A DNA stretch of 64,000 nt from an uncultured Candidatus Saccharibacteria bacterium. Lineage in GTDB: Bacteria; Patescibacteriota; Minisyncoccia; Phycocordibacterales; UBA2100. A program made the position numbers and the translations under genes. The notes beneath the pieces were generated by a model. It saw nothing but the letters and a program-made list of their open reading frames with translations, was not told where the DNA came from and did not search any database. Location of the stretch: the NCBI GenBank assembly GCA_964398775.1, contig CAYNND010000003.1, positions 3,879 to 67,878 of the forward strand, read 5' to 3'. Within the stretch, counting starts at the first letter, position 1. Every line of letters starts with the position of its first letter. Shown here one piece after another: positions 12,470 to 60,375 of this stretch.

Positions 12470-13720
12470 CTACCACAGGCACGTTTTGAAAATACAGAGC
12501 GATGTACCTGTCTCATCAGCTTGGTTTGTGATGCGAAAGCCGTCTGTATCAGGAGTTTTTTTCGGCTTAAATATACAACTTGCACGCGCAACGACTTTGC
12601 GACTTGCATAACAGTCAATAGCAAAGACCGTCGAACGGAGTGGTAGTTTCACCTCCACAGTTCCAAGTGGCAGCTTTCGAGAATTAAACCCCCTCCCTTC
12701 TGTGGTCATTTTACCGCTGTACATATTTCCACATGACCACTCGATGGTAACCGTATGTGCGTCACTACGCTGCACGCAGCGCATCATTGGTTTTTTTCGC
12801 TCTGGTTCCTCTTCCTCAGTAAGAGTATCATCTACATACAAATCGGCCGCGGTCTTGGCATTTGATACTCCTGACTGCACCCCAGTATTCATCCCAGTAG
12901 CGCTCGTACTTATGCTATTTGTAGTTGGATATTGTTGTTGTGTGTACGGGTTTTGCTGTGGCTGTGTTTGATACTGTGGTGATTGTTGCATCTGCTGTTG
13001 CGTTTGGGGTTGCTGATACTGTTGCGCTGGTGTAGTCGCCCATTGTCCATCTTCTTGTGCGCCTGTCGGCATGATGTTTTGGACAACACCTTCAAGTGGT
13101 GTCCCACGAGCTGCTTCTTGAAGTATTTGACCTGTCGCAGTATGCAAAACTCCTCCAGGTGTTTGTATATTGGCGCCATTCTTGAGGAACGTCTGCAACA
13201 TGGTACGGACGCCAGGGTCAGTAATCTGCGCAATACCTGAACTTGAGTAGCCAGGACCCCATGCTGCGACTGCTTGTCGATTATCGACATGAAACTTATT
13301 TCCATTGTAGTATCCGAGTCCACCAATGCAGCGATTCTTGCAGCAGAGCCCTGCAAGCAGTAGCTGCCCAAAACGTTGTGCATTTCCTTTGACGACAACA
13401 TCAACTGCCCGCCCCTGCATGTGCTGGCTTTGTGATGCACCTCCAACTGAGGCGTTGTGCTGCGGTGAACGATATCCTGAGGTTACAGTGCATGCAGTAT
13501 TTTGGTTTGTGCGAATAAGCTGCTGAACATCTCCTCCCATCGCTGCGCATGCATTTATAACAATATCTGACGTGTACGTGTCGGCACCTAGCAACTTAGC
13601 TCCGTGCGTACCAGAAACTTCTTGCGGGCATGCAGGATTTTGAGCAGACCCAGCAGCATAGGCAACAGAAGTTGAGTTGAGCGCGAAAAATACTAGTACA
13701 AATATTGATTTCATATGCAA
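12470..13720 (-). CDS. Secreted Peptidase_M15_3 (MepK/YcbK-like LAS metallopeptidase) with Q-rich linker and one copy of shared C-terminal domain A
   Basis: 416 aa. Signal peptide MHMKSIFVLVFFALNSTSVAYA. LAS motifs SGYRSPQHNASVGGASQSQHMQGRAVDVVV and GLGYYNGNKFHVDNR. Linker QQYQQPQTQQQMQQSPQYQTQPQQ. C-terminal MMRCVQRSDAHTVTIEWSCG...FAIDCY...ASC is domain A of the paralog family. Confidence 0.75.
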   Translation of the reverse strand: MHMKSIFVLVFFALNSTSVAYAAGSAQNPACPQEVSGTHGAKLLGADTYTSDIVINACAAMGGDVQQLIRTNQNTACTVTSGYRSPQHNASVGGASQSQHMQGRAVDVVVKGNAQRFGQLLLAGLCCKNRCIGGLGYYNGNKFHVDNRQAVAAWGPGYSSSGIAQITDPGVRTMLQTFLKNGANIQTPGGVLHTATGQILQEAARGTPLEGVVQNIMPTGAQEDGQWATTPAQQYQQPQTQQQMQQSPQYQTQPQQNPYTQQQYPTTNSISTSATGMNTGVQSGVSNAKTAADLYVDDTLTEEEEPERKKPMMRCVQRSDAHTVTIEWSCGNMYSGKMTTEGRGFNSRKLPLGTVEVKLPLRSTVFAIDCYASRKVVARASCIFKPKKTPDTDGFRITNQADETGTSLCIFKTCLW

Positions 13721-15246
13721 AAGTTAAATACGCACAGTTTTCGCGGCGCTTCAGTGGCGCCTGTTTTTTGCGCCCCGGTGACAAATGACTCATCTGCTGG
13801 TTTTTCTGCAGAGACAGTTATCGTGCACTGCGCTCTCCCGATGAGCGTTTCACCATCATAGCAGTTAATACCGAGCATCGTTGTTTTTGCAGGACGGACG
13901 CGAATTGAGCCCAGAGTATTACCTTTCGAAGAGAACCCTATACCTTCACTTCGGGTTGCCGTTCGGCCGCACGACCATGCAAGTGTTGGGGCCGCACCTC
14001 GCAGTATCTTCAGCGGAACACAGCGGATTTTTGCATCACCAAATGTTTTTATCGTACTTTTTTTCTTTTCAGTCGACGTTTCGTCATCTTTTACTCCAGA
14101 AACACTCCCCCCAAGAGGATCATAAAATGTAGTGTCTTTATTCTCTCCCGTTGCGCCTATTACTTTCTGCTCAGCTTTCTTTTGTGCCGTCACTTGTTTC
14201 TTTTTTTCTTCTTCCTTCCACGCATCATCCTTGGCGAATGGATTCTTCCCGCCATCTTTTGGAAGTGGCTTGTTTGGGTCTAGAAATGAAGGTTTTGCAT
14301 CTTTTTGGAGCCGGTCAAAATCTGATTGCTTCCATTGACTTGCTCCTGGGTTGTAATTGCTACTTTGTACGCCGGTCGGACTTCCTGATTGACCACTGCT
14401 TGGTTGTTGCGATTGACCGCTTTGCTGATAGGGCTGCTGCCCTTGCCCGAGAGCTGCAATTTGCTCTGCTGTTGGGCCTTGACCAGGGGCTAAGTTGCTC
14501 CCATCAACACAAATTGAACCGACTTGGGTAGCAGCACGAACAGCTCGCCTGTTTGGAATGAGCATCCCAGCTCCTTTCAACTGCTGAGCAGCTTGTGCCA
14601 TCTTGGCAGCACTCACAGAATCTTGATACTCTGCAGCAACGACAGGAATACCCTGCTGCACAAAATAATTATACTTACCGCAATCTCCATTTTTTGCGCA
14701 ATCTTCTTCGAGAACCATTGCTATATTTTGTCTGTACTGCGGATACTGTTGCAATAATTTTACCCATGCACCTTCATCGTTTTTTATGACAACCTTGAGG
14801 CCATATTTCTGCCCCATATCGACCATGAAGCGTAAATCTTCGGGGGTTACTTTCTCTGCAGTATTGTCCGGTTCAAATGCTTTAAATCCTCTTTGTGCAG
14901 CTTGTTGCAATAATCGCTCAGTTCGAGCTCTGCCAGCAGGATGCCGCGCGAAATCTACCCATGGCTCGTTCCAGCCACCTTCACTTGCAGAACCACGATT
15001 TCCAGTCGCTCCTGCAGGACAATCACCCTGACATCGACCAATGTTTGTATACGCGACAGGGAAGACTCCTGACGGTGCATTACACTTCGATGAGTCGACA
15101 CTGCATGCCGCAGTTGCACCCGCACAGTCGCACCCACCAAGGTTCCACCCAAATGAGCCACATTTATTTCCTGCAGGAGTATTTGCTGCATATGCAGGCA
15201 GTATGATGCATATGCTGAGCAGACATGCACTGACAAGCAATTTCAT
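13711..15246 (-). CDS. Secreted protein with TIM-barrel glycoside-hydrolase-like domain (tentatively GH114-like), S/Q/G-rich linker and shared C-terminal domain A
   Basis: 511 aa. Signal peptide MKLLVSACLLSICIILPAYA. Central region with FEPDN, KVVIKNDEG and VVAAEY segments, tentatively hydrolase-like. Low-complexity linker QGQQPYQQSGQSQQPSSGQSGSP. C-terminal KIRCVPLKILRGAAPTLAWSCG...GINCY...AQC is domain A. Confidence 0.55.
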   Translation of the reverse strand: MKLLVSACLLSICIILPAYAANTPAGNKCGSFGWNLGGCDCAGATAACSVDSSKCNAPSGVFPVAYTNIGRCQGDCPAGATGNRGSASEGGWNEPWVDFARHPAGRARTERLLQQAAQRGFKAFEPDNTAEKVTPEDLRFMVDMGQKYGLKVVIKNDEGAWVKLLQQYPQYRQNIAMVLEEDCAKNGDCGKYNYFVQQGIPVVAAEYQDSVSAAKMAQAAQQLKGAGMLIPNRRAVRAATQVGSICVDGSNLAPGQGPTAEQIAALGQGQQPYQQSGQSQQPSSGQSGSPTGVQSSNYNPGASQWKQSDFDRLQKDAKPSFLDPNKPLPKDGGKNPFAKDDAWKEEEKKKQVTAQKKAEQKVIGATGENKDTTFYDPLGGSVSGVKDDETSTEKKKSTIKTFGDAKIRCVPLKILRGAAPTLAWSCGRTATRSEGIGFSSKGNTLGSIRVRPAKTTMLGINCYDGETLIGRAQCTITVSAEKPADESFVTGAQKTGATEAPRKLCVFNFCI

Positions 15247-15301
15247 TACTCTATTCTATCGTGTTTTTTACTCTAGCTGACCATCCGTCCACATCCAACA
15301 C

Positions 15302-16735
15302 TTATATTTCATCAAGAGGATCTTCGAAGATTGTCTGTACTTGGTTTGTTTGTCCTGTATTATTTTTTTGTTTTGCTTCATCATACAATACATCCTCTTC
15401 GATAAGTGTTACCGTCTCTGTTTTTGTGAAAACGTCAGTACCAGTTTTTGCTTTACACTTTATCGTAAATGTTTCTTCATTATCAATGGACGCAGATGAT
15501 ACTCGCCCACTCTTATCCGAAGAAGCGACTCCAGGACCTGTCACTGTACAGGAGCGCGCGTTTTGTGATGACCATACAACCTCTACAGTCTCTCCTGGAT
15601 ATACCTCTTGTGGCTCTACACTGAAACGCACAGATAACTTGGCGGTTGGTTTTGCTACTTGTATTTCGCAGGATTGCTTACCGACGACAACCGCACCTTT
15701 TTTACACTGGACGGTGTAGCGAGTTTTTTGTTGCGGTTTTACAACTGAAGAACCACTTGCTTCACCCTTTGTGTTAAGCGGCGCAAATGAGTTTGAAGAA
15801 CTCCCTACTGAGCGTGTCCCTGCAGGACACTCCCATTCAATACTTACTGATTCTCCTTTCGTAACTGACTCGGGATCACAAGTAAGCGTTATGCCACCTT
15901 CTGCTCCAGGGTCAGTAATTGCTGACTCCTCAGGTTTTTTTTGAAATGGATCTTGTTGCTTCATCTCAGGTGGCATACCTTGTTCCCCAGAGCCAGCCCC
16001 AGGCTGTCCTCCTCCGCTTGGTTGTTGTCCCGTCTGTGGACTGCCTTGCTGGTCTTGACCGCCTGGTGGTTGCTGCCCACCTCCTGGTGGTTGCTGCCCG
16101 CCCTGTCCTGGGTCTGCAATCGGACCACCACCTTTACACGGTGGAGTAGAAGGACTGCATGCCGCCTGACGATGTTCAATACACTGAATATGAGGACCCC
16201 AGTACGGGAAATGGAGCTGGTATTGCCCGGCAAGTCGCTTCAACACATCAACGCAGTTAACGTCAACTGCAAGTCCGTACTGATGGCAGGACTTCCCCGC
16301 AGGAGCACAACCACTCCTTCCACCACCACACATAGATGCCTGTTTTGCAGCACTTCGATAGGCACTGTTTATGCGAGGCGAGCAGCCAGAACGTGCTGCT
16401 GCATCGAAAAGCTTTGAAAGTCTGCACGCCAGACCTGAGTTGATTCCCCCTTGCCCATTCGGACCTGAAGGTACGCATTCGTTTTGTCGAGTGCATCCAT
16501 ATTTTGCGAGTGCTTGGAAGGGGTCTGTATCGCAACCACCATTTAAAATTCCCTTGTCTGAGGCTGTCGCATTGCTCATATCAATTCCCATTGAATTTAC
16601 TTGCGCGGTCTGCATTGATTCATCAGAAAACTCTTGAGTGAGGGTCACCAAAGATACGTCACCTCGAAGTGAGGCCGCGCCAACGACAAGCACTATTGCG
16701 AGCGTCGAAAAAAACCATGCGGTTTTATGCATCAC
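15302..16735 (-). CDS. Secreted VanY/M15B-like D,D-peptidase domain protein with G/Q/P linker and C-terminal A+B module
   Basis: 477 aa. Signal peptide MMHKTAWFFSTLAIVLVVGAASL. Motifs SAYRSAAKQ, SCHQYGLAVDV and LHFPYWGPH. Linker GGQQPPGGGQQPPGGQDQQGSP. C-terminal LTCDPESVTKGESVSIEWECP...YTVQCKK...QSC plus LSVRFSVEPQEVYPGETVEVVWSSQNARSCTV...FTIKC. Confidence 0.7.
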   Translation of the reverse strand: MMHKTAWFFSTLAIVLVVGAASLRGDVSLVTLTQEFSDESMQTAQVNSMGIDMSNATASDKGILNGGCDTDPFQALAKYGCTRQNECVPSGPNGQGGINSGLACRLSKLFDAAARSGCSPRINSAYRSAAKQASMCGGGRSGCAPAGKSCHQYGLAVDVNCVDVLKRLAGQYQLHFPYWGPHIQCIEHRQAACSPSTPPCKGGGPIADPGQGGQQPPGGGQQPPGGQDQQGSPQTGQQPSGGGQPGAGSGEQGMPPEMKQQDPFQKKPEESAITDPGAEGGITLTCDPESVTKGESVSIEWECPAGTRSVGSSSNSFAPLNTKGEASGSSVVKPQQKTRYTVQCKKGAVVVGKQSCEIQVAKPTAKLSVRFSVEPQEVYPGETVEVVWSSQNARSCTVTGPGVASSDKSGRVSSASIDNEETFTIKCKAKTGTDVFTKTETVTLIEEDVLYDEAKQKNNTGQTNQVQTIFEDPLDEI

Positions 16736-16780
16736 TCTATTCTACCAAGTATTTATCGTCCTGCGTCGACATACCCACAG

Positions 16781-18082
16781 CTACAATGCATCTGCAGGGT
16801 ATTCACTGTCTTGCGTATCTGTGTAAAAACGAACTGTCGCTGTCCGTGTAATCTTCTGTTGTTTTTGCTGACCAATACAAGTCAGTGTATATGTGACGTC
16901 GCGAGTAATCTCTTCCGTCGTGACACGACCTGACATGTCTTGCGAAGACACATCAGGGCCAGACAATGTACAGCTTTTTGCGTTAGCACTACTCCATGTT
17001 AGCTCAACGCGCTCTCCCGGACGAACCTCACTTGGGCGGGCCGATAGTCTGACACTCAGTGTTTGTTTTTGAGCGATGACCGGTATCGTACATGAACCTG
17101 TCGCTACTACTTTATTTGCCTTCACACAGGAAATGGTAAATGTTGTTTTTGATTTTGGCGCAACCTTCAAAACACCTTCCATTTTATTTTTTGTGTTGAA
17201 TGATGCCAGGTTCGGCTGAGCATGACTTCGTGATTGAGAAGCAGCGGGACACTTCCATGAAATTGAGGCTGAACTCCCCGGTGTAATTGTTGCAGGGGTG
17301 CACTCTATTTCAATATCGCCGCTCTCCTCTACAGGCGCTTTTGATTCAGCAACATCAGAGGCTTTCCCGTTTTGAGACGCAAGGAAATTATTTGGATTCT
17401 GACCAAATGATGTGCCCTGGCCTTGTTGAGTACCAGTTTGCTGTTGCGGCGTTTGCCCTGAAGCGGGAGGCTGCCCTTGCTGGCCTGTCGCATCCTGACC
17501 TTGTCCAAAGGATGCAGTATCTTGACCAGATGGAGGTGTCTGTGCCTGACATGCTGCATCGCAGCTACCCATTTGAAAATGCACTGGATCTCTCCCTCGA
17601 ATAGTAGGTGGATTAAAAATGCCGTACTGCGAACTAATTTGGTGTAGTTTTGTATAAATAGCAGCAGGACCTACATCTACTGCGAGACCTCTTCCATGAT
17701 ATGAACGGCCAGGTGGGGCTGCCAAACCACCACCGTTTTGATACCGCGCATACGCAGCGGCTTGTTCTTGAACACTTCGAAACGAATCATTTATGCGCGC
17801 ACGCACTCCTGTTTGCTGTTCTGCTGCTTGAATAGCTTGCATGACACGTTGACCAAACTGAGGGTTAAGTTGACGCATACGTCCGCATGAGCGACCACCG
17901 CATCGCGATTCAAGAAATTGAATCCAGTCTCCGTTTTGCGCGCCGAGCAGGTTCGTATCGCCTTGCATGAGAATTGTATCTTTGGGCAAGTTCAATGATT
18001 TAATTATTTCTGCGTGCGCAAAAGAAGAGGATATACACGCAATGCAAACAAATATTGATATATACGCAGTGGTGTATTTCAT
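16781..18082 (-). CDS. Secreted VanY/M15B-like D,D-peptidase domain protein with Q/G/T linker and C-terminal A+B module
   Basis: 433 aa. Signal peptide MKYTTAYISIFVCIACISSSFAHA. Motifs NDSFRSVQEQ, SYHGRGLAVDV and DPVHFQMG. Linker QGQDATGQQGQPPASGQTPQQQTGTQQGQG. C-terminal IECTPATITPGSSASISWKCP...FTISCVK...GSC plus LSVRLSARPSEVRPGERVELTWSSANAKSCTL...YTLTC. Confidence 0.7.
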   Translation of the reverse strand: MKYTTAYISIFVCIACISSSFAHAEIIKSLNLPKDTILMQGDTNLLGAQNGDWIQFLESRCGGRSCGRMRQLNPQFGQRVMQAIQAAEQQTGVRARINDSFRSVQEQAAAYARYQNGGGLAAPPGRSYHGRGLAVDVGPAAIYTKLHQISSQYGIFNPPTIRGRDPVHFQMGSCDAACQAQTPPSGQDTASFGQGQDATGQQGQPPASGQTPQQQTGTQQGQGTSFGQNPNNFLASQNGKASDVAESKAPVEESGDIEIECTPATITPGSSASISWKCPAASQSRSHAQPNLASFNTKNKMEGVLKVAPKSKTTFTISCVKANKVVATGSCTIPVIAQKQTLSVRLSARPSEVRPGERVELTWSSANAKSCTLSGPDVSSQDMSGRVTTEEITRDVTYTLTCIGQQKQQKITRTATVRFYTDTQDSEYPADAL

Positions 18083-48163: not shown

Positions 48164-48601
48164 TTATCGTCTTAGTTTTGTTACTCCTTTCCCTGCGTCA
48201 TCCACATACTCATTGATATCAAGCGACCATGATATGTCCTTCAATTTACTATCTGAAAGTGAGGGGAGTTCCGAATTCTTTTTTGCAGCCATATCGTCTT
48301 TTTTCTCAGATTCCTTCACTTTATCTACGTGCTTCCACAAAAACAGTTTACCACGAATTGAGTAGTAAAATGCACTTTCAAGTACAACCAAGAATGGTCG
48401 GTCATTGATTTTATAAAAAGCAAGGGCGAGCGAAAAGCCCATGACAGGGAGCATCGCAACGAGCGCAATCTTTTGCGGGAGCAGTGAGTACACAAAGTAG
48501 GAAAGACCAGCGCCACCAACAATAAAAATGAATTGTTTGAACGTGAATGGTCCAAAAATTTTATCTTCCACCTCGATGAATTGTGGAACAGAGAATTGCA
48601 T
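48164..48601 (-). CDS. VirB3/PrgI-like small membrane protein
   Basis: 145 aa. Two TM segments (FKQFIFIVGGAGLSYFVYSL and IALVAMLPVMGFSLALAF) near the N-terminus. Sits immediately upstream of VirB4, as VirB3/PrgI does. Confidence 0.4.
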   Translation of the reverse strand: MQFSVPQFIEVEDKIFGPFTFKQFIFIVGGAGLSYFVYSLLPQKIALVAMLPVMGFSLALAFYKINDRPFLVVLESAFYYSIRGKLFLWKHVDKVKESEKKDDMAAKKNSELPSLSDSKLKDISWSLDINEYVDDAGKGVTKLRR

Positions 48602-49231: not shown

Positions 49232-51481
49232 TTAGTGCGCTGCGTGGTCATCAGCTTTTGCAGCAGGTGCTGCTGGTGCAGCAGGTGCTGCTGGTGCTGC
49301 TGGGATGTTCTGTGCAAGTGTCTGGCCAAGTTGTGCTGTTCGCTGACTTTCACGCTGCATTCTCGCAATTTCTTGTGGAGATAGCGCCGCTCGAGCCATT
49401 CCGGCCTTCATCGCATCATCAGATAATTTTAGTTTATTATCCGTAACAAATTGCTTAAATGCTGACACAGAAGCTGTTTTTGCCTGCTCTCTTTCTGTTG
49501 CAAGTCGAATTTCGCGCGCCTGCTTCTTATTTTTTTCAACGTCAATCTGAATTTCTCGGTGCTCCTTTTCTTTCTGCTCTCTTTTCGCAGATGCCTCAGA
49601 AAGCTCGTCTCTGATGCGTTTGATATTTGCGTTCGCCTGTCTCATAGTAGCATCTGCGTCAGCGAGACTCTTTTCAACAGCTTTTTGCTTTACACCACCA
49701 GGATCAGAATTTGGGTTTTTCTGCATCTCAGCTTTGTATTCTTCAAGGGCTTTTGCAGCCGCTGCGTGGTTTTCGGTTGCCTGGGTAACAAGAGTCTCAG
49801 CCTTAGATACTTCTGTAGTCTTTGCCTGCACTGTCTCTTTAAGCCCATCTATTGCTTGCTTAAGCTCAGTAGATTTGACCTCTTTTGCGTTATGTTCCTC
49901 GAGAAATGCCGCACCTTCTTTCTTTTGCTTCTCAGCAACTTGTGCTTTTTGGAAGTCAGCCATACGCTCTCCCGTAGCTTTGTCTGTAGCACGCTTCGTG
50001 TCGATTGTTTTTTTAAGTGTTTCCTTTCCAGCTTTTCCAGTTTGGATACCAAGCTTTTGCAAGGCTTTCATAACAGCCGCGTCTCGGAAGTCACCACTAG
50101 TGTTGAGACGAGATTTGTATTTCTCAAGTTTTTCTCGTGCTTTCTCTTTCGACTCCGGTGTGTCATGAGGGCCATCGTGTGCCGCTTCAAGATTTTTCAG
50201 TTGTCGCTCAGCAAATGCAAGTCTACCTTTTCGCACACTGGCGGCTGCGCTGCCAAATGCTGCACCGGTTACCATCCCAAAGCCTCCTGAGAGCTTTGAT
50301 TTAACATCCGTTCCAAACATTTGGTTGCCTTTTTTTGCAAGCATGTCAGCAACTTTTACAGCAACAACAAAGAGTGTAACCATCACTGCATAGCGACCAA
50401 GTGCCCCGCCTGCATTTGTGATTGTCGGGTCAAATATACCTTCGACGCGCAGCCCAGGCGCAGGGCTTTTTGCAATGGCGTCCATAATCTGAATCACCGT
50501 CCAGAGCATAAGGAGGAGTAGTGGAGCAAAAAAAGCGTTTGCGAGTAGCGACGTCCTCCATTCGTTAAAATATTTTGAGAATGATGGGATGATGAGTGCA
50601 GCAGTTGCAAGCGAAGATGTTACCATGACGAGAATAAGCATTACAGCACGGACTGTAAGTAGCCATGCACAATAGAAGAATACAAACGCAGAAATCAAAA
50701 ATATAATTGCGATACCAATCGATGTAACAAGAAGTAGCCCCGGGCTACCTGGTCGCTCAGATTTTAATTTATCAACCAACTTACTCCAATCATTCAATTC
50801 CGTTATACCGAAGGCAGTTGATATTCTTTGTGATATGTTCGCTTGTCCTGAAGTAATGCCCGTTGCATCGGTTATTGCTGAACCCCCTACCCCAGCTATC
50901 CCTCGGTAGAACTGATAGGCAACAAAGTTTGAAACATCAATCACTGCCATTGAGAAGAAGAGACTGAAGTTCATGAAGAGTGCCACGAGAATCGCACGCA
51001 CAGCATGCTGCTTTATGCTGTACTCATGGTTATTAAGGATTATATTTATTGCGATAAATATAAAGAAGCCTATGAGTACAATCTGCGACAAATCGCGAAA
51101 TACTACCCAGATCCTTTGTATTGCCTCTATAACACCCCAAAACTGAAGTGTTCCAGTAAAGTTTGCCGCAAACGCCCAAATAGTATAGTCAAAAAGTACA
51201 CCTGCAAGTGCTAGAAACGTTGCTGCGAGTGTGATAAGTGCTGCCCCTATCCATGCTGCAACAGTCTCAATACCACTTTTTATCCAACTCCCACCTCCGT
51301 ACCAAGCAGCAATAGAGCCGAGAACTAGCCCACCTAAAATAAGCGGTGGCGCAGCCTCAGCTTTTTCTACGCTGATTGCTAGCGGGCTTGAGAGGGATGT
51401 CGTATCAATTGTGACTGAAAGTGGCGCGAGCATGACGCATAGCGATATCACAACCGAAATAGCTCGTCTCCACATACCCAC
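49232..51481 (-). CDS. VirB6/TrbL-like polytopic membrane protein with long C-terminal coiled-coil and PAA repeats
   Basis: 749 aa. At least 7 hydrophobic helices in the first ~420 aa. C-terminal K/E/A-rich coiled-coil. Tail PAAPAAPAAPAAPAAKADDHAAH is encoded by an 18-bp tandem DNA repeat at 49261-49304. Confidence 0.45.
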   Translation of the reverse strand: MGMWRRAISVVISLCVMLAPLSVTIDTTSLSSPLAISVEKAEAAPPLILGGLVLGSIAAWYGGGSWIKSGIETVAAWIGAALITLAATFLALAGVLFDYTIWAFAANFTGTLQFWGVIEAIQRIWVVFRDLSQIVLIGFFIFIAINIILNNHEYSIKQHAVRAILVALFMNFSLFFSMAVIDVSNFVAYQFYRGIAGVGGSAITDATGITSGQANISQRISTAFGITELNDWSKLVDKLKSERPGSPGLLLVTSIGIAIIFLISAFVFFYCAWLLTVRAVMLILVMVTSSLATAALIIPSFSKYFNEWRTSLLANAFFAPLLLLMLWTVIQIMDAIAKSPAPGLRVEGIFDPTITNAGGALGRYAVMVTLFVVAVKVADMLAKKGNQMFGTDVKSKLSGGFGMVTGAAFGSAAASVRKGRLAFAERQLKNLEAAHDGPHDTPESKEKAREKLEKYKSRLNTSGDFRDAAVMKALQKLGIQTGKAGKETLKKTIDTKRATDKATGERMADFQKAQVAEKQKKEGAAFLEEHNAKEVKSTELKQAIDGLKETVQAKTTEVSKAETLVTQATENHAAAAKALEEYKAEMQKNPNSDPGGVKQKAVEKSLADADATMRQANANIKRIRDELSEASAKREQKEKEHREIQIDVEKNKKQAREIRLATEREQAKTASVSAFKQFVTDNKLKLSDDAMKAGMARAALSPQEIARMQRESQRTAQLGQTLAQNIPAAPAAPAAPAAPAAKADDHAAH

Positions 51482-51539
51482 AGTATATATGAAAAAACTA
51501 CTTTATCTTAGGCTCAAGAAAGTGAATGTGTATTGCCAG

Positions 51540-53321
51540 CTACAGCTTTAAATCTTGCCACTTTTCTGCCTTGCACCAGCTCGCAGTCCATGAATTTTGT
51601 GTTCGCTCGACAAGGTTCTGCAATATGTCCTTCAATTGGCTTTGTTTATCGCGTGCATTCGATACATGTGATGAATTGTGGAGCTTGCCTGCGTTAACAA
51701 GTTTTTCAAGCTGACCAATTACAAACTGTGCTGTTGCGGGGCTGCTGTCATTTTTCAACATATTCTCGAGTCCCTTGAGTACAGAAAGGGCACTATCCGA
51801 TGACTTGAGGTTTTCTGCGAATACTCTGCGAATCGGCTCTATGTCGTCCTTTATCACCTTGATTGAACGCTCGTTGGTCTTAAGCAAGGTAACGCTCTTT
51901 GTTACACCGCTTAGCTTAGCCGTTATCTTATATCGCTTTTTTGGACTCGCCTCGGTGCTGCCGGGGTCATCAGAAATATCCACAGTCACATCTGCAGTAC
52001 ATGATCCCATGTTGCCATCACCGGAGCAGACCTCATCCTCCACTTGTTTTTTCAAATCTTTCTTCGCCTGGTCAAGCATGTCGTCAAAGCACTTGTCCTC
52101 TCTTTGGACTAGAGTTGCCATTGTCGTATCAATAAGAGAAAGAGTAGTTTTAATTACTGCATTGTAGTCACCTTCAGTTTGGAGAGCTTTTTGCAGGGCA
52201 TCTTTACCGACATTTGTCGTCTCTCCTCGTGCGCGACCAAAGGCATCATCGACTGCACGGTCAAGGTATGAAGCGCCACTAGCGTTGTTTGTAGTTGATT
52301 GTAAGCCGCCAAACCCAGAGAGTACTTCAGTTTGGAGGTTAGTGATGAATGAGCCAAGGAGTTCGTCGATACTATCTGCCTGTTCAGTTTGGCGATGTCC
52401 AGTCTGCACCAAGAAGCTTGTCATATCGGCTATCACCTTTCCTGGGGTAACGATCTGACAGTCTTCCTCGTATCGGCCATTACCGACGGGCACTTGCTTA
52501 CATTCACGGTCAGAAAGGAAACCATTGCCCCAATCAAGCTCCTTTGCGAGCCTTCGTTGCTCCTCATCGATTGTCACTGTCGCTGTATCACGCAGATTCA
52601 TAAAAGCAGAGAGTTCATTGTTCCCTTCTTCAAATGACGATATAAAATTTCCCCACCCACTGTTTTCAAGGTCACCTCTCATCAGTGATGTATATTGCTG
52701 CTCAGTACCATTAAAACTACACGCATATGCAAGTTCTGGTTTTCTGGTTTTATTTACATAGTCTTGCACCAAATTTCGCTTCACACGTTCTCGGTACGGC
52801 GCACACATTTTTTGCAGTGATTCATGTTCCATGAATTTCTCCATAACTTCATCACGGAGTTGGGCTTGAAGCGCGCGCGGGTTCTGTGCATACTTTGCCT
52901 GGCCTTGTCTCCCTTCGTTTATTTGGCGAAGCGCTGCACGGGTGATTCCTGAAACTATGGCTTCACGCTGACGTATATTGAGTCCATCAAGTACACAAAA
53001 CTTGTTGACTAAAATGAATGTATTGAGTGCAATTGCCTCTTCAGAGACTGGGACAAATGTTCCCTGTGCGTGCTGCATTCCCACTGGACCCACTTCGCCA
53101 ATACCCTTACATCCATAGATGCCGTTGCGTACAAACTCATATGCGCTGGAGGTATTTCCTTCAGAATCTTTTACATTCAAGTTTTTCAAATCATTTTGGT
53201 ACTCCTTCAAAAAGTTTTCTATATCCTCGCTCGATTTTGTTTTTGTTTGACCATATGCAAATACACCCATAAACATGATTATGATTCCTAGAATCGACGC
53301 GATGTATCTGTGTCTTCTCAT
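51540..53321 (-). CDS. Hypothetical secreted protein, 593 aa (T4SS-like cluster)
   Basis: Signal/anchor IASILGIIIMFMGVFAYG. Several Cys. No recognised family. Confidence 0.4.
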   Translation of the reverse strand: MRRHRYIASILGIIIMFMGVFAYGQTKTKSSEDIENFLKEYQNDLKNLNVKDSEGNTSSAYEFVRNGIYGCKGIGEVGPVGMQHAQGTFVPVSEEAIALNTFILVNKFCVLDGLNIRQREAIVSGITRAALRQINEGRQGQAKYAQNPRALQAQLRDEVMEKFMEHESLQKMCAPYRERVKRNLVQDYVNKTRKPELAYACSFNGTEQQYTSLMRGDLENSGWGNFISSFEEGNNELSAFMNLRDTATVTIDEEQRRLAKELDWGNGFLSDRECKQVPVGNGRYEEDCQIVTPGKVIADMTSFLVQTGHRQTEQADSIDELLGSFITNLQTEVLSGFGGLQSTTNNASGASYLDRAVDDAFGRARGETTNVGKDALQKALQTEGDYNAVIKTTLSLIDTTMATLVQREDKCFDDMLDQAKKDLKKQVEDEVCSGDGNMGSCTADVTVDISDDPGSTEASPKKRYKITAKLSGVTKSVTLLKTNERSIKVIKDDIEPIRRVFAENLKSSDSALSVLKGLENMLKNDSSPATAQFVIGQLEKLVNAGKLHNSSHVSNARDKQSQLKDILQNLVERTQNSWTASWCKAEKWQDLKL

Positions 53322-53324
53322 AAA

Positions 53325-54275
53325 TTAAATAGTGTCAATATCATTAACTGCAAAATAGACACGAAGTGCCTCTTGTGCCATTTTAAGCTGTCGTTCAGCT
53401 TTTCCAAAATGTCCAAGTGCGCGGTAGCTGCCGATAATATCGTCGTACCCCTTGCTCATTCCCTCGAGTGCTGCACTTGTGTACATGAGGCCATTTATGA
53501 AATTGACATGATTTTCAACTGCATCGGTCGGCGTTTCAACATCAAGTAGCTTTTTTGCAACTACGACATATATTTTTGAGGCTTTGTTTAAGGCATCGAA
53601 GTCTTTTGGCTCATTTTTATCAACAGCACGAGCATATGTTTGCAGTTCATACTCAGGAATTTCCTTCAGCGGCTCAAGTGCTTTCTGAACTTGTGCACGA
53701 TATGTGAGTATGTGTTGTTTGGTTGAGTTAGTTTGACTGGCTATCTCTGCTGCTGTGTGTTGTGTGTACTTAAGCTCGCTCAGTGTTTTGATTGTGCTTT
53801 TGATGATAGCTTCCTTCTCTTTCTGCGTTACTTCACCGCTATTTGCTTGTTCCTGAAGGACATATGCCCCCACAAGTCTGTCAGCGGTTATTTCTGTAGT
53901 TGTTGTGCCAGCGGGGACGTTTCCATTTACTGCTTCAATAAAGCCTTTTTGGCGCTCCTTCTTCATTTCCTCAATCTCTGCTTTATCGTCAACTCCGTCG
54001 CCATCCGTATCTTTTTCCGATACGCTAGTCCCGTATAAGATTTCTTGCCAGTCCGGAGCTCCATCATTGTCAGCATCACCAGAGTCAGTTGGTGCAGGTT
54101 GCATATTTTTTGCCACTTCTGTTTGCGCCGCGACATCTTTCTTTTGAAAGTATGCAAAGATGCTACTCATGCTGATGACGGTGACTCCAGCTATAAGCGC
54201 GAGGACTACTTTTTGATGTTCTGACGCAAAGTGCATGGAGATAGTATAGCAGCCAATGCGCATTTCTTCGCACAA
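53325..54275 (-). CDS. Hypothetical membrane-anchored protein with acidic Ca-binding-like DxDxDG repeats
   Basis: 316 aa. TM VVLALIAGVTVISMSSIFAYF. DADNDGAPDWQE and DTDGDGVDDKAE segments resemble thrombospondin type-3 / calcium-binding loops. Confidence 0.4.
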   Translation of the reverse strand: MCEEMRIGCYTISMHFASEHQKVVLALIAGVTVISMSSIFAYFQKKDVAAQTEVAKNMQPAPTDSGDADNDGAPDWQEILYGTSVSEKDTDGDGVDDKAEIEEMKKERQKGFIEAVNGNVPAGTTTTEITADRLVGAYVLQEQANSGEVTQKEKEAIIKSTIKTLSELKYTQHTAAEIASQTNSTKQHILTYRAQVQKALEPLKEIPEYELQTYARAVDKNEPKDFDALNKASKIYVVVAKKLLDVETPTDAVENHVNFINGLMYTSAALEGMSKGYDDIIGSYRALGHFGKAERQLKMAQEALRVYFAVNDIDTI

Positions 54276-54299
54276 TAATGTGAGTAATTCTAGATGTGC

Positions 54300-55172
54300 C
54301 TACTGCCCAGTAACTGGTGGAGTAAATATCCCGCCCGGTTCATTTTCAGAAAATACAACGCCCTGGTCTTTAAACAAAAGAGCAAAAGTAATGAAGCTTG
54401 TTGCAAAGCCCTCTACGTTTGTATTGTAGGTGAGCATATTTTCATATGTACTCGAGTCGTCCGTCGAACGTTTCAAGACGCGTAAACCATCAGCAACACC
54501 TCTATACCCCGCGCTCAATGCATTTTTCTCCACTGAAAACACGTCAGGTCCATCAATCGCGTCAATATTTTTAGCAAGAATGTCGTAATCACTCGCAAGC
54601 TCATCTATATATGCTTTTCCTTCTGAGTCACGTGTCTGTGTAAACGCTCCAAGTTTGTCCGCTTGTTTGCTGTGAGCTAGTGTCAGCATCTGAATTTTCG
54701 TGCCTACAGCATTGCCAAATGCTCGGATTGCTTTCTTCGTCGCATCCTCCTCCTTGGGGGTATCCCAGGGGGTGAGCGTAATCTTTGTATTTGATTTCCA
54801 CATTTCACCAACGTTTACATACTCCGGTGTCGCAGTTGTCGTTTTTCCTGGCTGTTTTTTCGGAGTTTTTTCGTCTTCAGGCACTGTCTTAGGCTTGTAT
54901 TTTTCTGCCACTCCTTTGTCTTTTATAATTCCGTTCTCCCATGTATCACCAAATGCTTCCCTCTCAGATAATGAGCTGTCTTCGGGTCTCCATGGTGTGT
55001 ATTCACTTGTCGGAGTGTTTCCACCTACAATACCTCCGTCTTCGAATGTAAGTTCAGTATTCTTCTGTTCACTGAATTGCAATACTGCATATACAGTGAC
55101 CACTAGTATGGATGTCGCTGCTATACCTAAGTATCCAACCCATGTTCTCATAGTGGATAGTATATCTGACAA
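54300..55172 (-). CDS. Hypothetical membrane-anchored protein (last gene of T4SS-like cluster)
   Basis: 290 aa. N-terminal TM GYLGIAATSILVVTVYAVLQF. No recognised family. Confidence 0.4.
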   Translation of the reverse strand: MSDILSTMRTWVGYLGIAATSILVVTVYAVLQFSEQKNTELTFEDGGIVGGNTPTSEYTPWRPEDSSLSEREAFGDTWENGIIKDKGVAEKYKPKTVPEDEKTPKKQPGKTTTATPEYVNVGEMWKSNTKITLTPWDTPKEEDATKKAIRAFGNAVGTKIQMLTLAHSKQADKLGAFTQTRDSEGKAYIDELASDYDILAKNIDAIDGPDVFSVEKNALSAGYRGVADGLRVLKRSTDDSSTYENMLTYNTNVEGFATSFITFALLFKDQGVVFSENEPGGIFTPPVTGQ

Positions 55173-56513: not shown

Positions 56514-58454
56514 TTAGAAATCGATAAGGTCCATAGGCCCTCGCTCTCTTGAGCCAGAGCTGCGCTCGTCACTATAGATATGCTCCTCTGGGATATCGGA
56601 TATAAATTCAGAAGGAACAGTTACATGAGTTTGTCCATAGATGGTACGCATCATCGCATAAGATAGGTGGAGAACCTTTCTCGCGCGTGTTATTGCAACA
56701 TACATGAGTCTCCGCTCCTCTTCCTCGTCCCTATGCTCGTCACCGTGGTCGCTCGGAAACACTCCCTGCTCAAGCCCCACCAAAAAAACATGTTCAAACT
56801 CAAGTCCTTTTGCGGCATGTATGGTCATCAATTTTACAGTTGACTGCGTTGCTTCAAGGGAGTCTTGATCTGCGGCGAGCGCAGCGTCATCGAGAAAATG
56901 CATAATTCCTTCGGGGAGTGACTCGTTGTCATATTTTGTTGCGAGTGTAACCAATTCGCGCATGTTCTGTATGCGCTCTTCTCCATCCGTATCTTTCTTA
57001 TAGTGCATATCAAGACCACTTTCTTGAATTACAAAAGTAATCACATCAGAGGGTTTAAGTGTTGTGCACGCATGTCTGATACGACCAAGCAATGATTCAA
57101 ATCCTTCAACTTTCATGCGTAGTGCGGGAGTGAGTGATGCATGATCAGCCATCAACACTTTTGCGAGAGTTGTTTTTCCGATACCCCTCGGTGGTGTACT
57201 CGCTGCACGAGAATAGTCTCCTGGCGCAATTGTGTTTTGTGCTGCACGCACATACGAGATAACATCCTTTACTTCTTGTCGTTCAAAAAATCTTGTCCCA
57301 AGCACTTGATACGGAACGTCATGTCGCAAGCATGCGTCTTCAAGAGCGCGTGATAAAAAGTTCGCACGGTACAGTACTGCAATCTCAGATGCTGCTGTCC
57401 CTTCTTCAATTAATGTGCGCATTGATTCTGCAACGTAGCGCGCTTCATCGTCCCCTGTGTATGACTGGTGCAGTGTTATGTGCGCACCTTCAACATTTTT
57501 AGTAAATAATTGTTTTTCTTTTCGTTTTGCGTTTTTTGCAATTACTGCATTTGCAGCGTCGAGGATGCGTTGTGTTGAACGGTAGTTTTCTTCAAGGACT
57601 ATAACAGTTGTGTTCGGGAATTCTTTTTCAAATGACAGCAAATTTTCAAGCTGCGCCCCGCGCCATGAATAGATAAGCTGATCTGTATCGCCCACCGCAC
57701 AGATGTTATTACCAGGCCCAGTCAGCAATTGCGCAATTTGGAATTGTATTGCATTTGTATCTTGGTACTCATCAATATGTATGTAGCGCCATCTGCGGTG
57801 CAGAATCTCGCGCACTTCAGGATGTGTGAGTAACAAGTGTGCGGTTTTGGAAAGTAAATCATCAAAATCGAGCGCGTGCTCTTTTGAAAGTTTTAGGTCA
57901 TAGAGTCTCATGACTGCGCCTGCGAGTGTTTTCCATGGGTTGTGTGGATCGCGAACAAGGTGTTCATACGAGTGACCGTCACCTTTTGTGCGTGAAATGA
58001 TACTCAATATCTGCCGGGGCTCGTATGTTTTTGGATCATATCCAAGCTCAATGATTATTTCCTTTACCGCCCGCATACTCTCTGTTCGGTCATAGATTGT
58101 GAAGTGTCGGTGCAAACCAATAACATGTGAAAACTCTCTGAGTAGTGATACTCCCAATGAGTGAAAAGTCGACATAAACGGTCGTGTCATACCTGTTGCG
58201 AGCGCATCTACTGGGCGGTTGATGCTTGGGTCTTTTGCCAGTAGGTCCAGCACTCGTTCGCGCATCTCTTTTGCGGCTTTATTGGTAAACGTAATAGCAA
58301 GTATTTCATCTGGGGCGACCCCAGTGCGTATAAGTTGGACAATCCGTTCAGTGATTGTTCGTGTTTTGCCTGTCCCCGCCCCAGCAATAATAAGGAGTGG
58401 ACCATCTACATGTGTGACTGCGAGTTTCTGTGCATCGTTGAGTCCGTGAAGCAT
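56514..58454 (-). CDS. ATP-dependent DNA helicase, UvrD/PcrA/Rep superfamily 1
   Basis: 646 aa. Helicase motif I LLIIAGAGTGKTRTITERI. DEYQDTN. TFTNKAAKEM. TIHAAKGLEFEHVF. VAITRARK. Confidence 0.9.
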   Translation of the reverse strand: MLHGLNDAQKLAVTHVDGPLLIIAGAGTGKTRTITERIVQLIRTGVAPDEILAITFTNKAAKEMRERVLDLLAKDPSINRPVDALATGMTRPFMSTFHSLGVSLLREFSHVIGLHRHFTIYDRTESMRAVKEIIIELGYDPKTYEPRQILSIISRTKGDGHSYEHLVRDPHNPWKTLAGAVMRLYDLKLSKEHALDFDDLLSKTAHLLLTHPEVREILHRRWRYIHIDEYQDTNAIQFQIAQLLTGPGNNICAVGDTDQLIYSWRGAQLENLLSFEKEFPNTTVIVLEENYRSTQRILDAANAVIAKNAKRKEKQLFTKNVEGAHITLHQSYTGDDEARYVAESMRTLIEEGTAASEIAVLYRANFLSRALEDACLRHDVPYQVLGTRFFERQEVKDVISYVRAAQNTIAPGDYSRAASTPPRGIGKTTLAKVLMADHASLTPALRMKVEGFESLLGRIRHACTTLKPSDVITFVIQESGLDMHYKKDTDGEERIQNMRELVTLATKYDNESLPEGIMHFLDDAALAADQDSLEATQSTVKLMTIHAAKGLEFEHVFLVGLEQGVFPSDHGDEHRDEEEERRLMYVAITRARKVLHLSYAMMRTIYGQTHVTVPSEFISDIPEEHIYSDERSSGSRERGPMDLIDF

Positions 58455-58525
58455 CGCGGTACTGTACCACGCACCGCTCCCCCAAGGAATAAATCACTGG
58501 GGAACTCCACAGGGTATCTCATGTA

Positions 58526-58534
58526 TGATATAAT
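58526..58534 (+). promoter_or_regulatory. Extended -10 promoter (TGATATAAT) positioned for a leaderless HTH-murA transcript
   Basis: TGnTATAAT ends 6 nt before the ATG at 58541. The predicted TSS therefore coincides with or lies within 1-2 nt of the start codon. There is no SD. Confidence 0.45.
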
Positions 58535-58540
58535 GAGAAA

Positions 58541-60058
58541 ATGTCAAAACACAATCCTCATGAGCAAATCGCATTGCTTATTCGCGAGTTGCGACAAAAA
58601 AAAGGTTTAACCCAAAAAGAGTTTGCTGATAAGCTCAATACAAGTCAAAGCGCAGTCGCGCGCATCGAAAAAGGTGAGCAAAATTTATCTACAGCGCAGA
58701 TTGTGAAAATTAGTGATGTTTTGAATCATAAGATACTCTCCATCTCAAGAAGTACTGACTTTCGTATTGAGGGGGGGCACCAGCTCAAAGGTTCTGTGGC
58801 TACTAATACCTCAAAAAATGGTGCGCTCGGGCTACTCGCTGCATCACTGCTCAACAAGGGCACAACAATCCTTCATGGAATCCCTCGGATTGAAGAAGTT
58901 GCGCGCATGCTTGAAGTCCTCAAGAGTATCGGGGTTACGATAGAGCATCATGGTGAGCAGACAATCAAAATCATTCCGCCAAAAAAGTTTGCTCTCGAGT
59001 CAATTCTTGCCGAGTCTGCTAAACGCATGCGCTCAGTACTCATGCTTATCGGGCCCTTACTGCATCATGAGAAGAAGTTCGGTCTCCCACATGCAGGGGG
59101 GTGCAATATGGGAGAAAGAACAATCTCTGCGCACGAACATGGGCTGCAAGCGCTCGGGGTTACGATAGAGACCGCTGCGCATGAGTACGTCATAAGCCAT
59201 AAAAAGCTTGCCCCCGCTGAAATTATTATGTATGAAGCTAGTGACACCGCTGCAATTAATGTGTTACTTGCGGCAGCTCTCATACCCGGAACAACGGTCA
59301 TTAAGTATGCGCCACCAAACTATCAAGTGCAGGACGTATGCTTTTTCCTTGAACGCGCTGGTGTACGCATTGAGGGCATAGGTACAACCACGCTTACTGT
59401 GCACGGGGTATCCGAGATTGACGCTCACCTTGAGCACTATAATAGTGAAGACCCAATTGAATCCATGATGTTTATCGCGGCGGCCGCAACTACTCATTCG
59501 ACGCTCACCATCACCCGTGCTCCAATCGACTTTCTTGAGACTGAGCTATTGAAGCTTCAGTATATGGGCTTACAGACAACACTAGGTGCACCATACCTAT
59601 CAAAAAACGGTAGAACTAAGCTTGTTGATATTACAGTACATCCATCACACCTCGTGGCTTCTCCTGTAAAGATTCACCCGCTTCCATACCCAGGCTTAAA
59701 TATAGACAATCTCCCTTTCTTTGTGCCCATTGCCTCTCAGGCTGAAGGGACGACACTTATTCATGACTGGACGTGGGAAAATAGAGCTATATATTTCACT
59801 GAATTAAACCGATTGGGTGCGGACGTAAAGCTTGCCGACCCACACCGAGTATTCGTAACAGGACCAACCCCCCTCCGAGCTGCCCAGGTGGTTGCCCCCC
59901 CAGCACTTCGCCCCGCGATGATAGTTCTGATTGCCATGCTTGCCGCAAAAGGGACCTCAGTACTCCGAAATGTGTACTCGATTGAGCGCGGTTATGAACG
60001 CATCGCCGAGCGTCTCTCGGAGATAGGGGCAAAAGTTGACACATTGACGGATATATAG
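58541..60058 (+). CDS. murA: Fusion of an XRE-family helix-turn-helix domain with UDP-N-acetylglucosamine 1-carboxyvinyltransferase (MurA)
   Basis: 505 aa. Residues ~5-70 are a Cro/C1-type HTH (LTQKEFADKLNTSQSAVARIEKGEQNLSTAQIVKISDVL). The rest is MurA: GGHQLKGSVATNTSKNGALGLLAASLL, catalytic-Cys loop HAGGCNMGERT, and the two-domain inside-out alpha/beta fold length. Confidence 0.8.
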   Translation: MSKHNPHEQIALLIRELRQKKGLTQKEFADKLNTSQSAVARIEKGEQNLSTAQIVKISDVLNHKILSISRSTDFRIEGGHQLKGSVATNTSKNGALGLLAASLLNKGTTILHGIPRIEEVARMLEVLKSIGVTIEHHGEQTIKIIPPKKFALESILAESAKRMRSVLMLIGPLLHHEKKFGLPHAGGCNMGERTISAHEHGLQALGVTIETAAHEYVISHKKLAPAEIIMYEASDTAAINVLLAAALIPGTTVIKYAPPNYQVQDVCFFLERAGVRIEGIGTTTLTVHGVSEIDAHLEHYNSEDPIESMMFIAAAATTHSTLTITRAPIDFLETELLKLQYMGLQTTLGAPYLSKNGRTKLVDITVHPSHLVASPVKIHPLPYPGLNIDNLPFFVPIASQAEGTTLIHDWTWENRAIYFTELNRLGADVKLADPHRVFVTGPTPLRAAQVVAPPALRPAMIVLIAMLAAKGTSVLRNVYSIERGYERIAERLSEIGAKVDTLTDI

Positions 60059-60082
60059 TCGTGCATTTTTTCAGCAAAAACA

Positions 60083-60109
60083 AAAATGGCTTATAATAAA
60101 GCCATTTTT
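60083..60109 (+). terminator. Rho-independent terminator after HTH-murA
   Basis: AAAATGGCTT-ATAATA-AAGCCATTTT followed by TA. 10-bp AT-rich stem. Confidence 0.5.
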
Positions 60110-60375
60110 AGTAAAAAAAGTTGACAAATTGTTTTTTTATGTTTTTTGGTTGACAGTGTACCCTATCCACAGTACTCTTCCACACGCCCACTAATTGACC
60201 CTAAAGCAGGATACAATTGCGGGACGCGGGACCATTCCCGATAGAACCACCGAACGACACCCTGACAGAACGAGAGTTTACCCCTTAACACATACGTATA
60301 GAAACGAATAAAGTACATGGTAACGCTCAGCGGATACGCCGAAACGCGCTTATCCGATCGACTTGCATATCACTA
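60110..60375 (+). promoter_or_regulatory. Long non-coding 5' leader (~265 nt) upstream of the LysM-M23 peptidase gene; candidate riboswitch/attenuator
   Basis: No ORF over 60 aa in any frame. Two TTGACA hexamers (60121, 60150). Hairpin CGGATACGC-CGAAAC-GCGCTTATCCG (60331-60358) lies immediately 5' of the start. Upstream in-frame stop at 60286 and the first possible start is TTG 60376. Confidence 0.35.

Follow-up and report, generated by a model that had tools for sequence, protein, structure and literature searches.

The stretch of DNA considered here, 64,000 nucleotides (nt) of a contig (CAYNND010000003.1, assembly GCA_964398775.1) from an uncultured Candidatus Saccharibacteria bacterium and hereafter called the window, carries at positions 58541-60058 of its forward strand a gene that, read from its sequence, encodes a fusion of a helix-turn-helix (HTH) DNA-binding domain with MurA, the UDP-N-acetylglucosamine (UDP-GlcNAc) 1-carboxyvinyltransferase. 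The fusion, its intact catalytic residues, the geometry of its promoter, a conserved operator and the co-variation of this operator with the recognition helix of the HTH domain were all computed in the present work. Taken together, the operator, the co-variation and the presence of catalytically dead paralogues make autoregulation a well-supported and easily testable model, and we regard it as likely that HTH-MurA is a bifunctional enzyme-repressor of the kind represented by BirA, PutA and NadR, in which an active MurA would be joined to an HTH domain repressing its own promoter. How much enters peptidoglycan synthesis depends on how MurA is controlled. If the model is true, a MurA binding to its own promoter would bring a new kind of regulation to the first committed step of the pathway, and it would count among the few concrete cis-regulatory circuits predicted for the Patescibacteria (also known as the candidate phyla radiation, CPR), organisms that possess very few regulators and are difficult to investigate.

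A MurA enzyme fused to a DNA-binding domain

The open reading frame (ORF) starts with ATG and codes for 505 amino acids (aa). An in-frame TGA at 58526-58528 prevents any upstream extension, so that a longer N-terminus is excluded, and public gene calls in two other assemblies give an identical 505-aa product. The gene and its parts are as follows.

58541-60058, forward strand: coding sequence of HTH-MurA, 505 aa and stop codon (ORF list, Pfam, NCBIfam, matches in the Protein Data Bank (PDB), public gene calls).
58556-58726, forward strand: HTH domain of the XRE or Cro/C1 type, aa 6-62 (Pfam HTH_3, AlphaFold2 model, conservation).
58646-58669, forward strand: recognition helix QSAVARIE, aa 36-43, with T34-S35 just before it (conservation in 86 orthologues).
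58727-58756, forward strand: short linker, aa 63-72, from the HTH domain to the first MurA strand (confidence of the AlphaFold2 model, alignment with Escherichia coli MurA).
58757-60043, forward strand: MurA domain, aa 73-501 (NCBIfam, PDB, Foldseek, catalytic residues).
59102-59104, forward strand: codon of Cys188, the equivalent of E. coli Cys115, in a GGC loop (alignment with E. coli MurA).

An initial annotation of the window had proposed an in-frame fusion of a Cro/C1-type domain with a complete MurA, and this is upheld by both Pfam domains, by the catalytic residues and by conservation. The domain search identifies the N-terminal region as an HTH (HTH_3 at aa 14-62, E 2.7e-15, 56.6 bits for a cutoff of 23; HTH_31, 39.5 bits for a cutoff of 27), followed by EPSP_synthase (PF00275) at aa 77-492 with E 1.3e-47. 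The curated family thresholds give a divided answer: the NCBIfam model of the MurA subfamily PRK09369 is passed with 336.3 bits (cutoff 297), whereas PRK12830 scores 242.7, below its cutoff of 552, and the TIGR01072 equivalog cutoff is missed as well. All the top PDB matches are MurA structures (best E 5.5e-56), in alignments that begin at aa 71-77, and when the E. coli MurA of the MG1655 record is laid alongside, its first residue falls on aa 70 (SRSTDFRIEGG against MDKFRVQGP). The HTH domain is absent from every solved structure matched in the PDB and Foldseek comparisons; its weak sequence matches are to HipB-type antitoxins and to ImmR. Across 86 orthologues it is as conserved as the enzyme part, with T34, S35, Q36, S37, A38, A40, R41 and E43 near-invariant.

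An AlphaFold2 model was built on the alignment of these 86 orthologues, with an average predicted local distance difference test (pLDDT) of 88.6 and a predicted template-modelling (TM) score of 0.82. It places four helices in the HTH domain (aa 6-20, 25-32, 36-43 and 51-61, with pLDDT 82-91 over aa 11-50), then a linker of about 10 residues predicted with low confidence (pLDDT about 63 at aa 61-70). In the enzyme part, the loop around Cys188 falls below a pLDDT of 50, as expected of the mobile catalytic loop, and Foldseek gives target-normalised TM-scores of about 0.9 to 1uae, 5ujs and 6q03. The residues K92, N93, R164, C188, R193, D389, R457 and R483 correspond to K22, N23, R91, C115, R120, D305, R371 and R397 of the E. 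coli enzyme, Cys188 being the equivalent of the cysteine that is both catalytic and the target of fosfomycin. The enzyme part thus looks intact, and the protein is predicted to be an active MurA; since it keeps its catalytic residues, it does not display the residue loss by which a pseudoenzyme regulator would be recognized. With the target cysteine kept, occupancy by the drug might feed back on murA expression.

A putative palindromic operator directly before the start codon

Immediately upstream of the gene, and downstream of it, the following elements can be discerned.

58506-58511, forward strand: candidate -35 hexamer TCCACA, weak, with a 17-nt spacer to the -10 (consensus scan).
58515-58532, no strand: palindromic operator of 18 base pairs, TATCTCATGTATGATATA, the putative site of an HTH-MurA dimer (window scan, position weight matrix (PWM), conservation in orthologous loci).
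58526-58534, forward strand: extended -10 TGATATAAT, with the hexamer TATAAT at 58529-58534 (position before the ATG, conservation across orthologous loci).
58541-58543, forward strand: ATG start codon and predicted transcription start of a leaderless mRNA (geometry of the -10, no Shine-Dalgarno (SD) sequence).
60081-60110, listed on the reverse strand and, being palindromic, on the forward strand too: terminator-like hairpin with a 12-pair stem, 23 nt past the stop codon (hairpin scan).

The operator TATCTCATGTATGATATA, the right half of which overlaps the extended -10 TGATATAAT, matches TATMKCATNNATGMKATA without mismatch and is the sole strong site in the window. A PWM built from 53 sites gives it 25.2 bits, the next-best position of the window reaching 10.3, within the range of shuffled sequence, so that the scan found no second operator in the 64 kb. 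A wider regulon inside the window was accordingly discarded, extra sites being present in just a few other loci.

The strength of the case lies in comparison. More than 597 loci in the species genomes of the Genome Taxonomy Database (GTDB) fit clade-specific peptide patterns; the best 80 were analysed, of which 75 carry the HTH domain, and the 70 nt upstream of each orthologue were aligned (L numbers below are locus labels, P numbers protein clusters). In nearly all orthologues a palindrome stands directly before the start codon, in forms such as TATATCATATATGATATA, TATAGCATATATGCTATA, TATCTCATATATGAGATA and, in Streptomyces, CATCTCATATCTGAGATA. A strict version of it occurs within 150 nt upstream in 58 of the 75 HTH-bearing loci, to be compared with 12 matches in the 529 kb scanned elsewhere in these loci, and those failing the strict scan mostly have degenerate copies. 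The palindrome ends, in most cases, 8-12 nt ahead of the start codon. When the control region of the window is set beside those of four orthologues (60-89% protein identity), the flanks cannot be aligned, and the palindrome and the ATG are invariant. The palindrome is kept both in AT-rich Patescibacteria and in loci of 68-73% GC from Streptomyces, Nonomuraea and Knoellia, and this persistence argues against a mere AT-rich promoter feature. Comparison thus lends strong support to the autoregulation that had been suggested from the window alone, since the palindromic operator lying over the -10 is conserved.

Two other motifs of the region were set aside. A second dyad, TCTCAT-N10-ATGAGA (58517-58538), is not conserved in orthologues and was treated as incidental. 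A TTATCCACA-like motif found upstream of the operator in many loci, which might have been taken for a DnaA box, is the reverse complement of the start of a divergent murB (ATG TGG ...).

This divergent gene is itself informative. In the window neither murB nor any other mur gene adjoins HTH-murA, whose neighbours there code for a UvrD-type helicase and for a LysM-M23 peptidase. In 13 orthologous loci, by contrast, the adjacent divergent gene is murB, and 8 more have murB at most 2.5 kb away. In the 13 loci only 11-166 nt, mostly 80 or less, separate murB from the start of HTH-murA, a gap so short that the operator falls within a shared control region.

Some loci carry further sites. In L009 an additional operator of the perfect type, TATCTCATATATGATATA, is found at 908-925, 2 kb from murA and upstream of a gene resembling M15 D-Ala-D-Ala dipeptidases; the regulon may, in some genomes, take in further cell-wall genes. 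In Streptomyces a different palindrome, TATCTCGATGTCGAGATA (L067 2554-2571 and L071 2540-2557), stands about 430 nt ahead of the start of HTH-murA and has the outer arms TATCTC/GAGATA in common with the operator. A core ATATCA-N4-TGAKAT also occurs within the part of the gene that encodes the HTH domain, at +142 (codons N-I-S-L-E/D-M), in six loci of Saccharimonadia type (L030 2842-2857, L032 2267-2282, L044 3122-3137, L046 3143-3158, L052 3119-3134 and L069 3119-3134). Streptomyces and Nonomuraea have nearly the same DNA at this place, including a CTT leucine codon, which is rare in high-GC actinomycetes. This coding-region site may be an auxiliary operator; the window has no such core at +142.

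Co-variation of operator and recognition helix

The two halves of the palindrome change symmetrically, as ATATCA/TGATAT, ATAGCA/TGCTAT or ATCTCA/TGAGAT, and the changes follow the protein. The TATAGCA/TGCTATA type is met only with a recognition helix beginning T/S-T-Q-S (13 of 13 loci), so that the replacement of S35 by T parallels the change from TATATCA to TATAGCA; proteins with T-S-Q-S, hence with S35, have T or C at the variable position of the operator. Halves of the TATACCA/TGGTATA form accompany only the '...SA(I/V)NRIE' helix of Saccharimonadia-type proteins.

Loss of one partner is in several cases mirrored in the other. In two Kaiserbacteria proteins the helix has been rewritten as SSISEVTKIE and the palindrome is gone; cluster P0125, with a decayed HTH domain, has no palindrome and a persisting enzyme part; the loci in which a diverged or decayed HTH domain goes with a missing site are L004, L005 and L090. 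Three members of the clade devoid of the HTH domain (L051, L056 and L091:2940-3010) begin immediately behind a tRNA gene, and the operator is missing from them. We take this co-variation, seen in sequence comparison, as supportive, and not as statistical proof.

A probably leaderless transcript, in a layout typical of its genome

The extended -10 TGATATAAT ending 6 nt before the ATG, with no SD sequence, had been reported beforehand and is directly visible: the intervening nucleotides are GAGAAA, and no SD-like motif lies upstream of the start codon. The -35 candidate TCCACA is not conserved in orthologous loci and is probably dispensable, because the -10 is extended. By itself TGNTATAAT does not exceed chance (1 match in the window for 2.0 expected); its placement does. 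Among the 50 long ORFs of the window, 16 have a TAnnnT hexamer ending exactly 6 nt before the start (0.66 expected per position), and an SD-like 4-mer at 5-12 nt is present in a single one. At the same place the divergent gene of the helicase (56514-58454, reverse strand) has TGGTACAGT, at 58461-58469 of the reverse strand. In the 80 orthologous loci TAnnnT ends 5-8 nt upstream in 51 cases, with a peak at 6-7 nt, and no locus has an SD-like 4-mer.

With 6 nt between the -10 and the ATG, and with no SD sequence in the orthologous loci, a leaderless transcript starting from the extended -10 is most likely. This part of the initial annotation fits the geometry best; what does not hold is the leaderless transcript as a trait particular to this gene, since the layout is a habit of the genome.

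A structured 5' region, hairpin or riboswitch-like, was considered and is not supported: the RNA of 58505-58560 folds no better than its shuffles (z = 0.10), and the Rfam scan retrieves just two tRNAs in the window. In view of the hairpin at 60081-60110, HTH-murA appears to be monocistronic; the next gene starts at 60376.

Catalytically dead paralogues

A further family of fusions sheds light on the role of the HTH domain. Six distant clusters (P0129, P0130, P0138, P0139, P0145 and P0253), at 31-40% identity, have lost the equivalents of R91 and C115, and mostly those of R120 and R371, and they retain the HTH domain and, mostly, the operator. Three of them are found beside wall-precursor genes. 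In L085 (5211-6740) the dead paralogue precedes a Mur ligase gene and diverges from a murA-murB pair in which murA has no HTH domain; in L086 (6001-7503) it is again divergent to HTH-less murA-murB, upstream of Ddl and Mur ligase genes; in L088 (3498-5003) it adjoins a Mur ligase gene and murA. Paralogues of this HTH-MurA-like kind are also present at L084 and L089. The arrangement is that of a dedicated local regulator, and it indicates that the function of the HTH domain has been maintained independently of catalysis. From their sequences and positions, these proteins are probably pseudoenzyme repressors of peptidoglycan-precursor genes. In a crude neighbour-joining tree the active fusions and their HTH-less relatives form one clade, and the dead paralogues another, long-branched one. 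In the dead paralogues a natural separation of sensing from catalysis may be at hand.

Weighing the enzyme-repressor model

Several observations weigh against the model, and they are best discussed with the alternatives to which they lend weight. The first of these, which we hold to be unlikely, is that the palindrome is mainly a promoter feature, a symmetric AT-rich -10 region read by RNA polymerase and perhaps driving divergent leaderless genes, the HTH domain binding elsewhere or tethering MurA to the nucleoid. The right half of the palindrome does supply TGnTATAAT, the palindrome is AT-rich with a -10-like sequence on both strands, and in many loci it stands between the divergent starts of murB and murA, with only 11-80 nt from one to the other; its conservation in Patescibacteria could thus come in part from promoter function. 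Furthermore, two HTH-less relatives, L020 (2945-2960) and L036, retain the palindrome 9-11 nt before their start, the former with a murA divergent to murB. Their case implies that the HTH domain either was lost recently or is replaced by a regulator in trans. The co-variation may also reflect perhaps one or a few evolutionary events. However, the same dyad, centred on CA-N4-TG, is kept in the GC-rich Actinomycetota, distinct from its flanks, and such a dyad is missing from the other 15 genes of the window whose -10 hexamer lies 6 nt from the start codon. Symmetric changes of the halves matched by the recognition helix are what a dimeric site predicts, and where the HTH domain decays the site is lost.

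The second alternative is that the window protein is a transcription factor with a MurA fold, used solely as a sensor, the true MurA being encoded by a gene outside the window. The dead paralogues, with the same HTH domain and operator beside separate murA genes, furnish the precedent. Two features of the window protein point the same way: its TIGR01072 equivalog score, 323.9, is below the cutoff of 392.7, and E. coli D369 is replaced by Ala455, throughout the clade, the sole difference among the residues checked. A search of the 64-kb window found no second MurA or HTH copy in it. The window protein nevertheless retains the Cys loop and all the other catalytic residues checked, in contrast to the dead paralogues, and in the crude tree it groups with active-looking sequences; its orthologues are paired with murB, with no second murA seen in their examined flanks. 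We therefore find this explanation, too, improbable, and favour an active enzyme that is at the same time a repressor.

A last difficulty concerns the dimer. Apart from the mere four helices of the HTH domain, the AlphaFold2 model shows nothing that would evidently serve dimerisation, and MurA enzymes are generally monomeric, so that a dimer of HTH-MurA on DNA is only assumed.

As for an HTH domain that would be vestigial or a protein-interaction module devoid of any DNA-binding role, with coincidental conservation upstream, nothing specific speaks for it beyond cluster P0125, where the HTH domain decays as the enzyme persists, and it is made most improbable by recognition-helix residues that are near-invariant in the 86 orthologues and retained even in paralogues without catalysis, and by operator statistics (58 of 75 loci; 25.2 against 10.3 bits) that leave little room for coincidence.

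A proposed mechanism

From these elements we infer DNA binding, repression rather than activation, dimerisation and control by ligands, arranged as follows. An HTH-MurA dimer would place its two HTH domains on the palindrome at 58515-58532; bound over the -10, it would occlude RNA polymerase and repress its own gene, resulting in negative autoregulation of MurA. In the relatives with a divergent murB, the same site would also control murB. The ligand state of MurA, be it UDP-GlcNAc, phosphoenolpyruvate (PEP) or the tightly bound product UDP-N-acetylmuramic acid (UDP-MurNAc), may modulate DNA binding, which would tie transcription to the precursor pool. Such control by ligands is plausible, because MurA undergoes transitions between open and closed forms and holds UDP-MurNAc tightly, and because the dead paralogues resemble sensors. 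The PDB entries 3swd, 3su9 and 6q03 contain MurA with UDP-MurNAc and the Cys-PEP adduct, and they suggest that the MurA fold can report the level of its product. With no other operator in the window, the circuit there appears purely autoregulatory.

A broader picture is possible, and we advance it tentatively, as somewhat less likely than not: an undescribed regulatory system, of which HTH-MurA would be the founding member and in which MurA would read the precursor pool through its open and closed ligand states and set the transcription of murA, murB and other wall genes through TATATCA-N4-TGATATA, a system repeatedly split into an HTH-less enzyme and a dead HTH-MurA-like sensor-repressor, and moved between Saccharibacteria and Actinomycetota. 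The prediction lends itself to experiment, the operator being defined to the base and orthologues being available in cultured Streptomyces, Nonomuraea and Knoellia.

Relation to known systems

A close parallel is BirA, the biotin protein ligase and repressor of the bio operon, where an N-terminal HTH-type domain is joined to an active enzyme and represses the pathway of that enzyme, with a palindromic operator overlapping the promoter. HTH-MurA would reproduce this layout with an N-terminal HTH domain, a predicted active enzyme and a palindromic operator over the promoter. BirA differs in its winged HTH and its unrelated catalytic fold; it dimerises upon binding the reaction intermediate biotinyl-AMP; and the target of HTH-MurA, unlike that of BirA, would be its own, probably leaderless, promoter. 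PutA and NadR, known as 'trigger enzymes', are metabolic enzymes with a DNA-binding domain that regulate the genes of their own pathway. Their DNA-binding fold and their pathway differ from those of HTH-MurA, PutA having a ribbon-helix-helix, and PutA is switched by membrane association and redox state. An operator placed in the gene's own promoter in the window, and in the shared murB-murA region in relatives, is what is expected of an enzyme-repressor of this kind.

Canonical MurA has the same fold and catalytic residues and no DNA-binding domain. Its known control is post-translational, through feedback by UDP-MurNAc and, in Firmicutes, through ClpCP proteolysis via ReoM and ReoY, whereas HTH-MurA would act on transcription, as its own regulator. 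Repressors of the XRE family such as HipB, ImmR and the Cro and cI proteins of phage 434 have in common with it the HTH_3 fold and an operator that is short, palindromic and placed over their own promoter; they are small stand-alone repressors or antitoxins whose dimers form by way of the HTH domain or of a partner, whereas in HTH-MurA an HTH domain of four predicted helices runs straight into a 430-aa enzyme. The HipB operator, TATCC-N8-GGATA, resembles the TATCA-N4-TGATA core found here, with a different spacing of the half-sites. Finally, MocR/GabR proteins, which associate an HTH domain with an enzyme-derived, mostly inactive sensor fold, are analogues of the dead paralogues in a different fold family; with its catalytic residues intact, the window protein falls outside the analogy. 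The novelty, to the extent of our searches, lies in the cross-phylum operator in the promoter, its co-variation with the HTH domain and the catalytically dead regulator paralogues.

Distribution of the fusion

The initial annotation had further presented the fusion as not being a standard architecture, a view that must be abandoned under the refuting condition which that annotation had set for itself: the architecture is widespread and annotated, and not rare. Both domains (HTH_3 and EPSP_synthase) are present in all of the best 120 matches from a collection of 5.8 billion proteins, which have 62-98% identity and about 500-512 aa, in agreement with the 75 HTH-bearing loci among the best 80 from GTDB. 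The named matches are called UDP-N-acetylglucosamine 1-carboxyvinyltransferase and come from Minisyncoccia and from Kaiser-, Zambryski-, Magasanik-, Pace- and Parcubacteria. Fusion clusters extend down to 31% identity (representatives at 50% identity clustering). Carriers include Paceibacteria, Saccharimonadia and Doudnabacteria, and the cultured Actinomycetota Streptomyces, Nonomuraea and Knoellia, whose proteins RefSeq labels either as MurA or as 'helix-turn-helix domain-containing protein'. Judged from sequence comparison, the fusion is old. In the searchable literature library, a search for HTH-MurA fusions, and for leaderless genes in CPR, retrieved nothing relevant.

The actinobacterial fusions (L059, L065, L067, L068, L071, L074, L077 and L079-L081; 68-73% GC) are 64-69% identical to those of Saccharimonadia type (L030, L032, L044, L046 and L052; 44-50% GC) and share no more than 52-55% identity with the window protein, a pattern suggestive of transfer between the Saccharibacteria and the phylum to which their known hosts belong, the Actinomycetota. 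A phage-type integrase gene lies just downstream of the Streptomyces locus L071 and at none of the other actinobacterial loci; as it is limited to that locus, a mobile-element origin of the actinobacterial copies was not retained. No viral carriage was found in IMG/VR.

Streptomyces MurA2 (SCO5998/vnz_28735), encoded beside aconitase, is described as a target of BldM-WhiI and SigB in papers that make no mention of an HTH domain (PMC4125116, PMC8346170, PMC12161575). The Streptomyces locus examined here has no neighbour of the size of aconitase, and an identity of its fusion with MurA2 was not established.

Other features of the window

Besides the UvrD-type helicase and LysM-M23 peptidase genes, the neighbourhood of HTH-murA in the window comprises ksgA and genes for a ComM/YifB-like ATPase and a DksA-type zinc-finger protein. 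Other cell-wall functions are encoded at a distance: a Mur ligase at 8032-9282, and, at 12470-18082, a cluster reminiscent of cell-wall hydrolases, with an M15 peptidase, a GH114 glycoside hydrolase and two VanY-like proteins; the operator is absent from the genes of this cluster and from the Mur ligase gene. Beside a gene of the PrgI family (type IV secretion-like), which appears in the public gene calls, five consecutive ORFs of the reverse strand, of about 290-750 aa and without a Pfam match, complete the picture (49232-55172 and 48164-48601).

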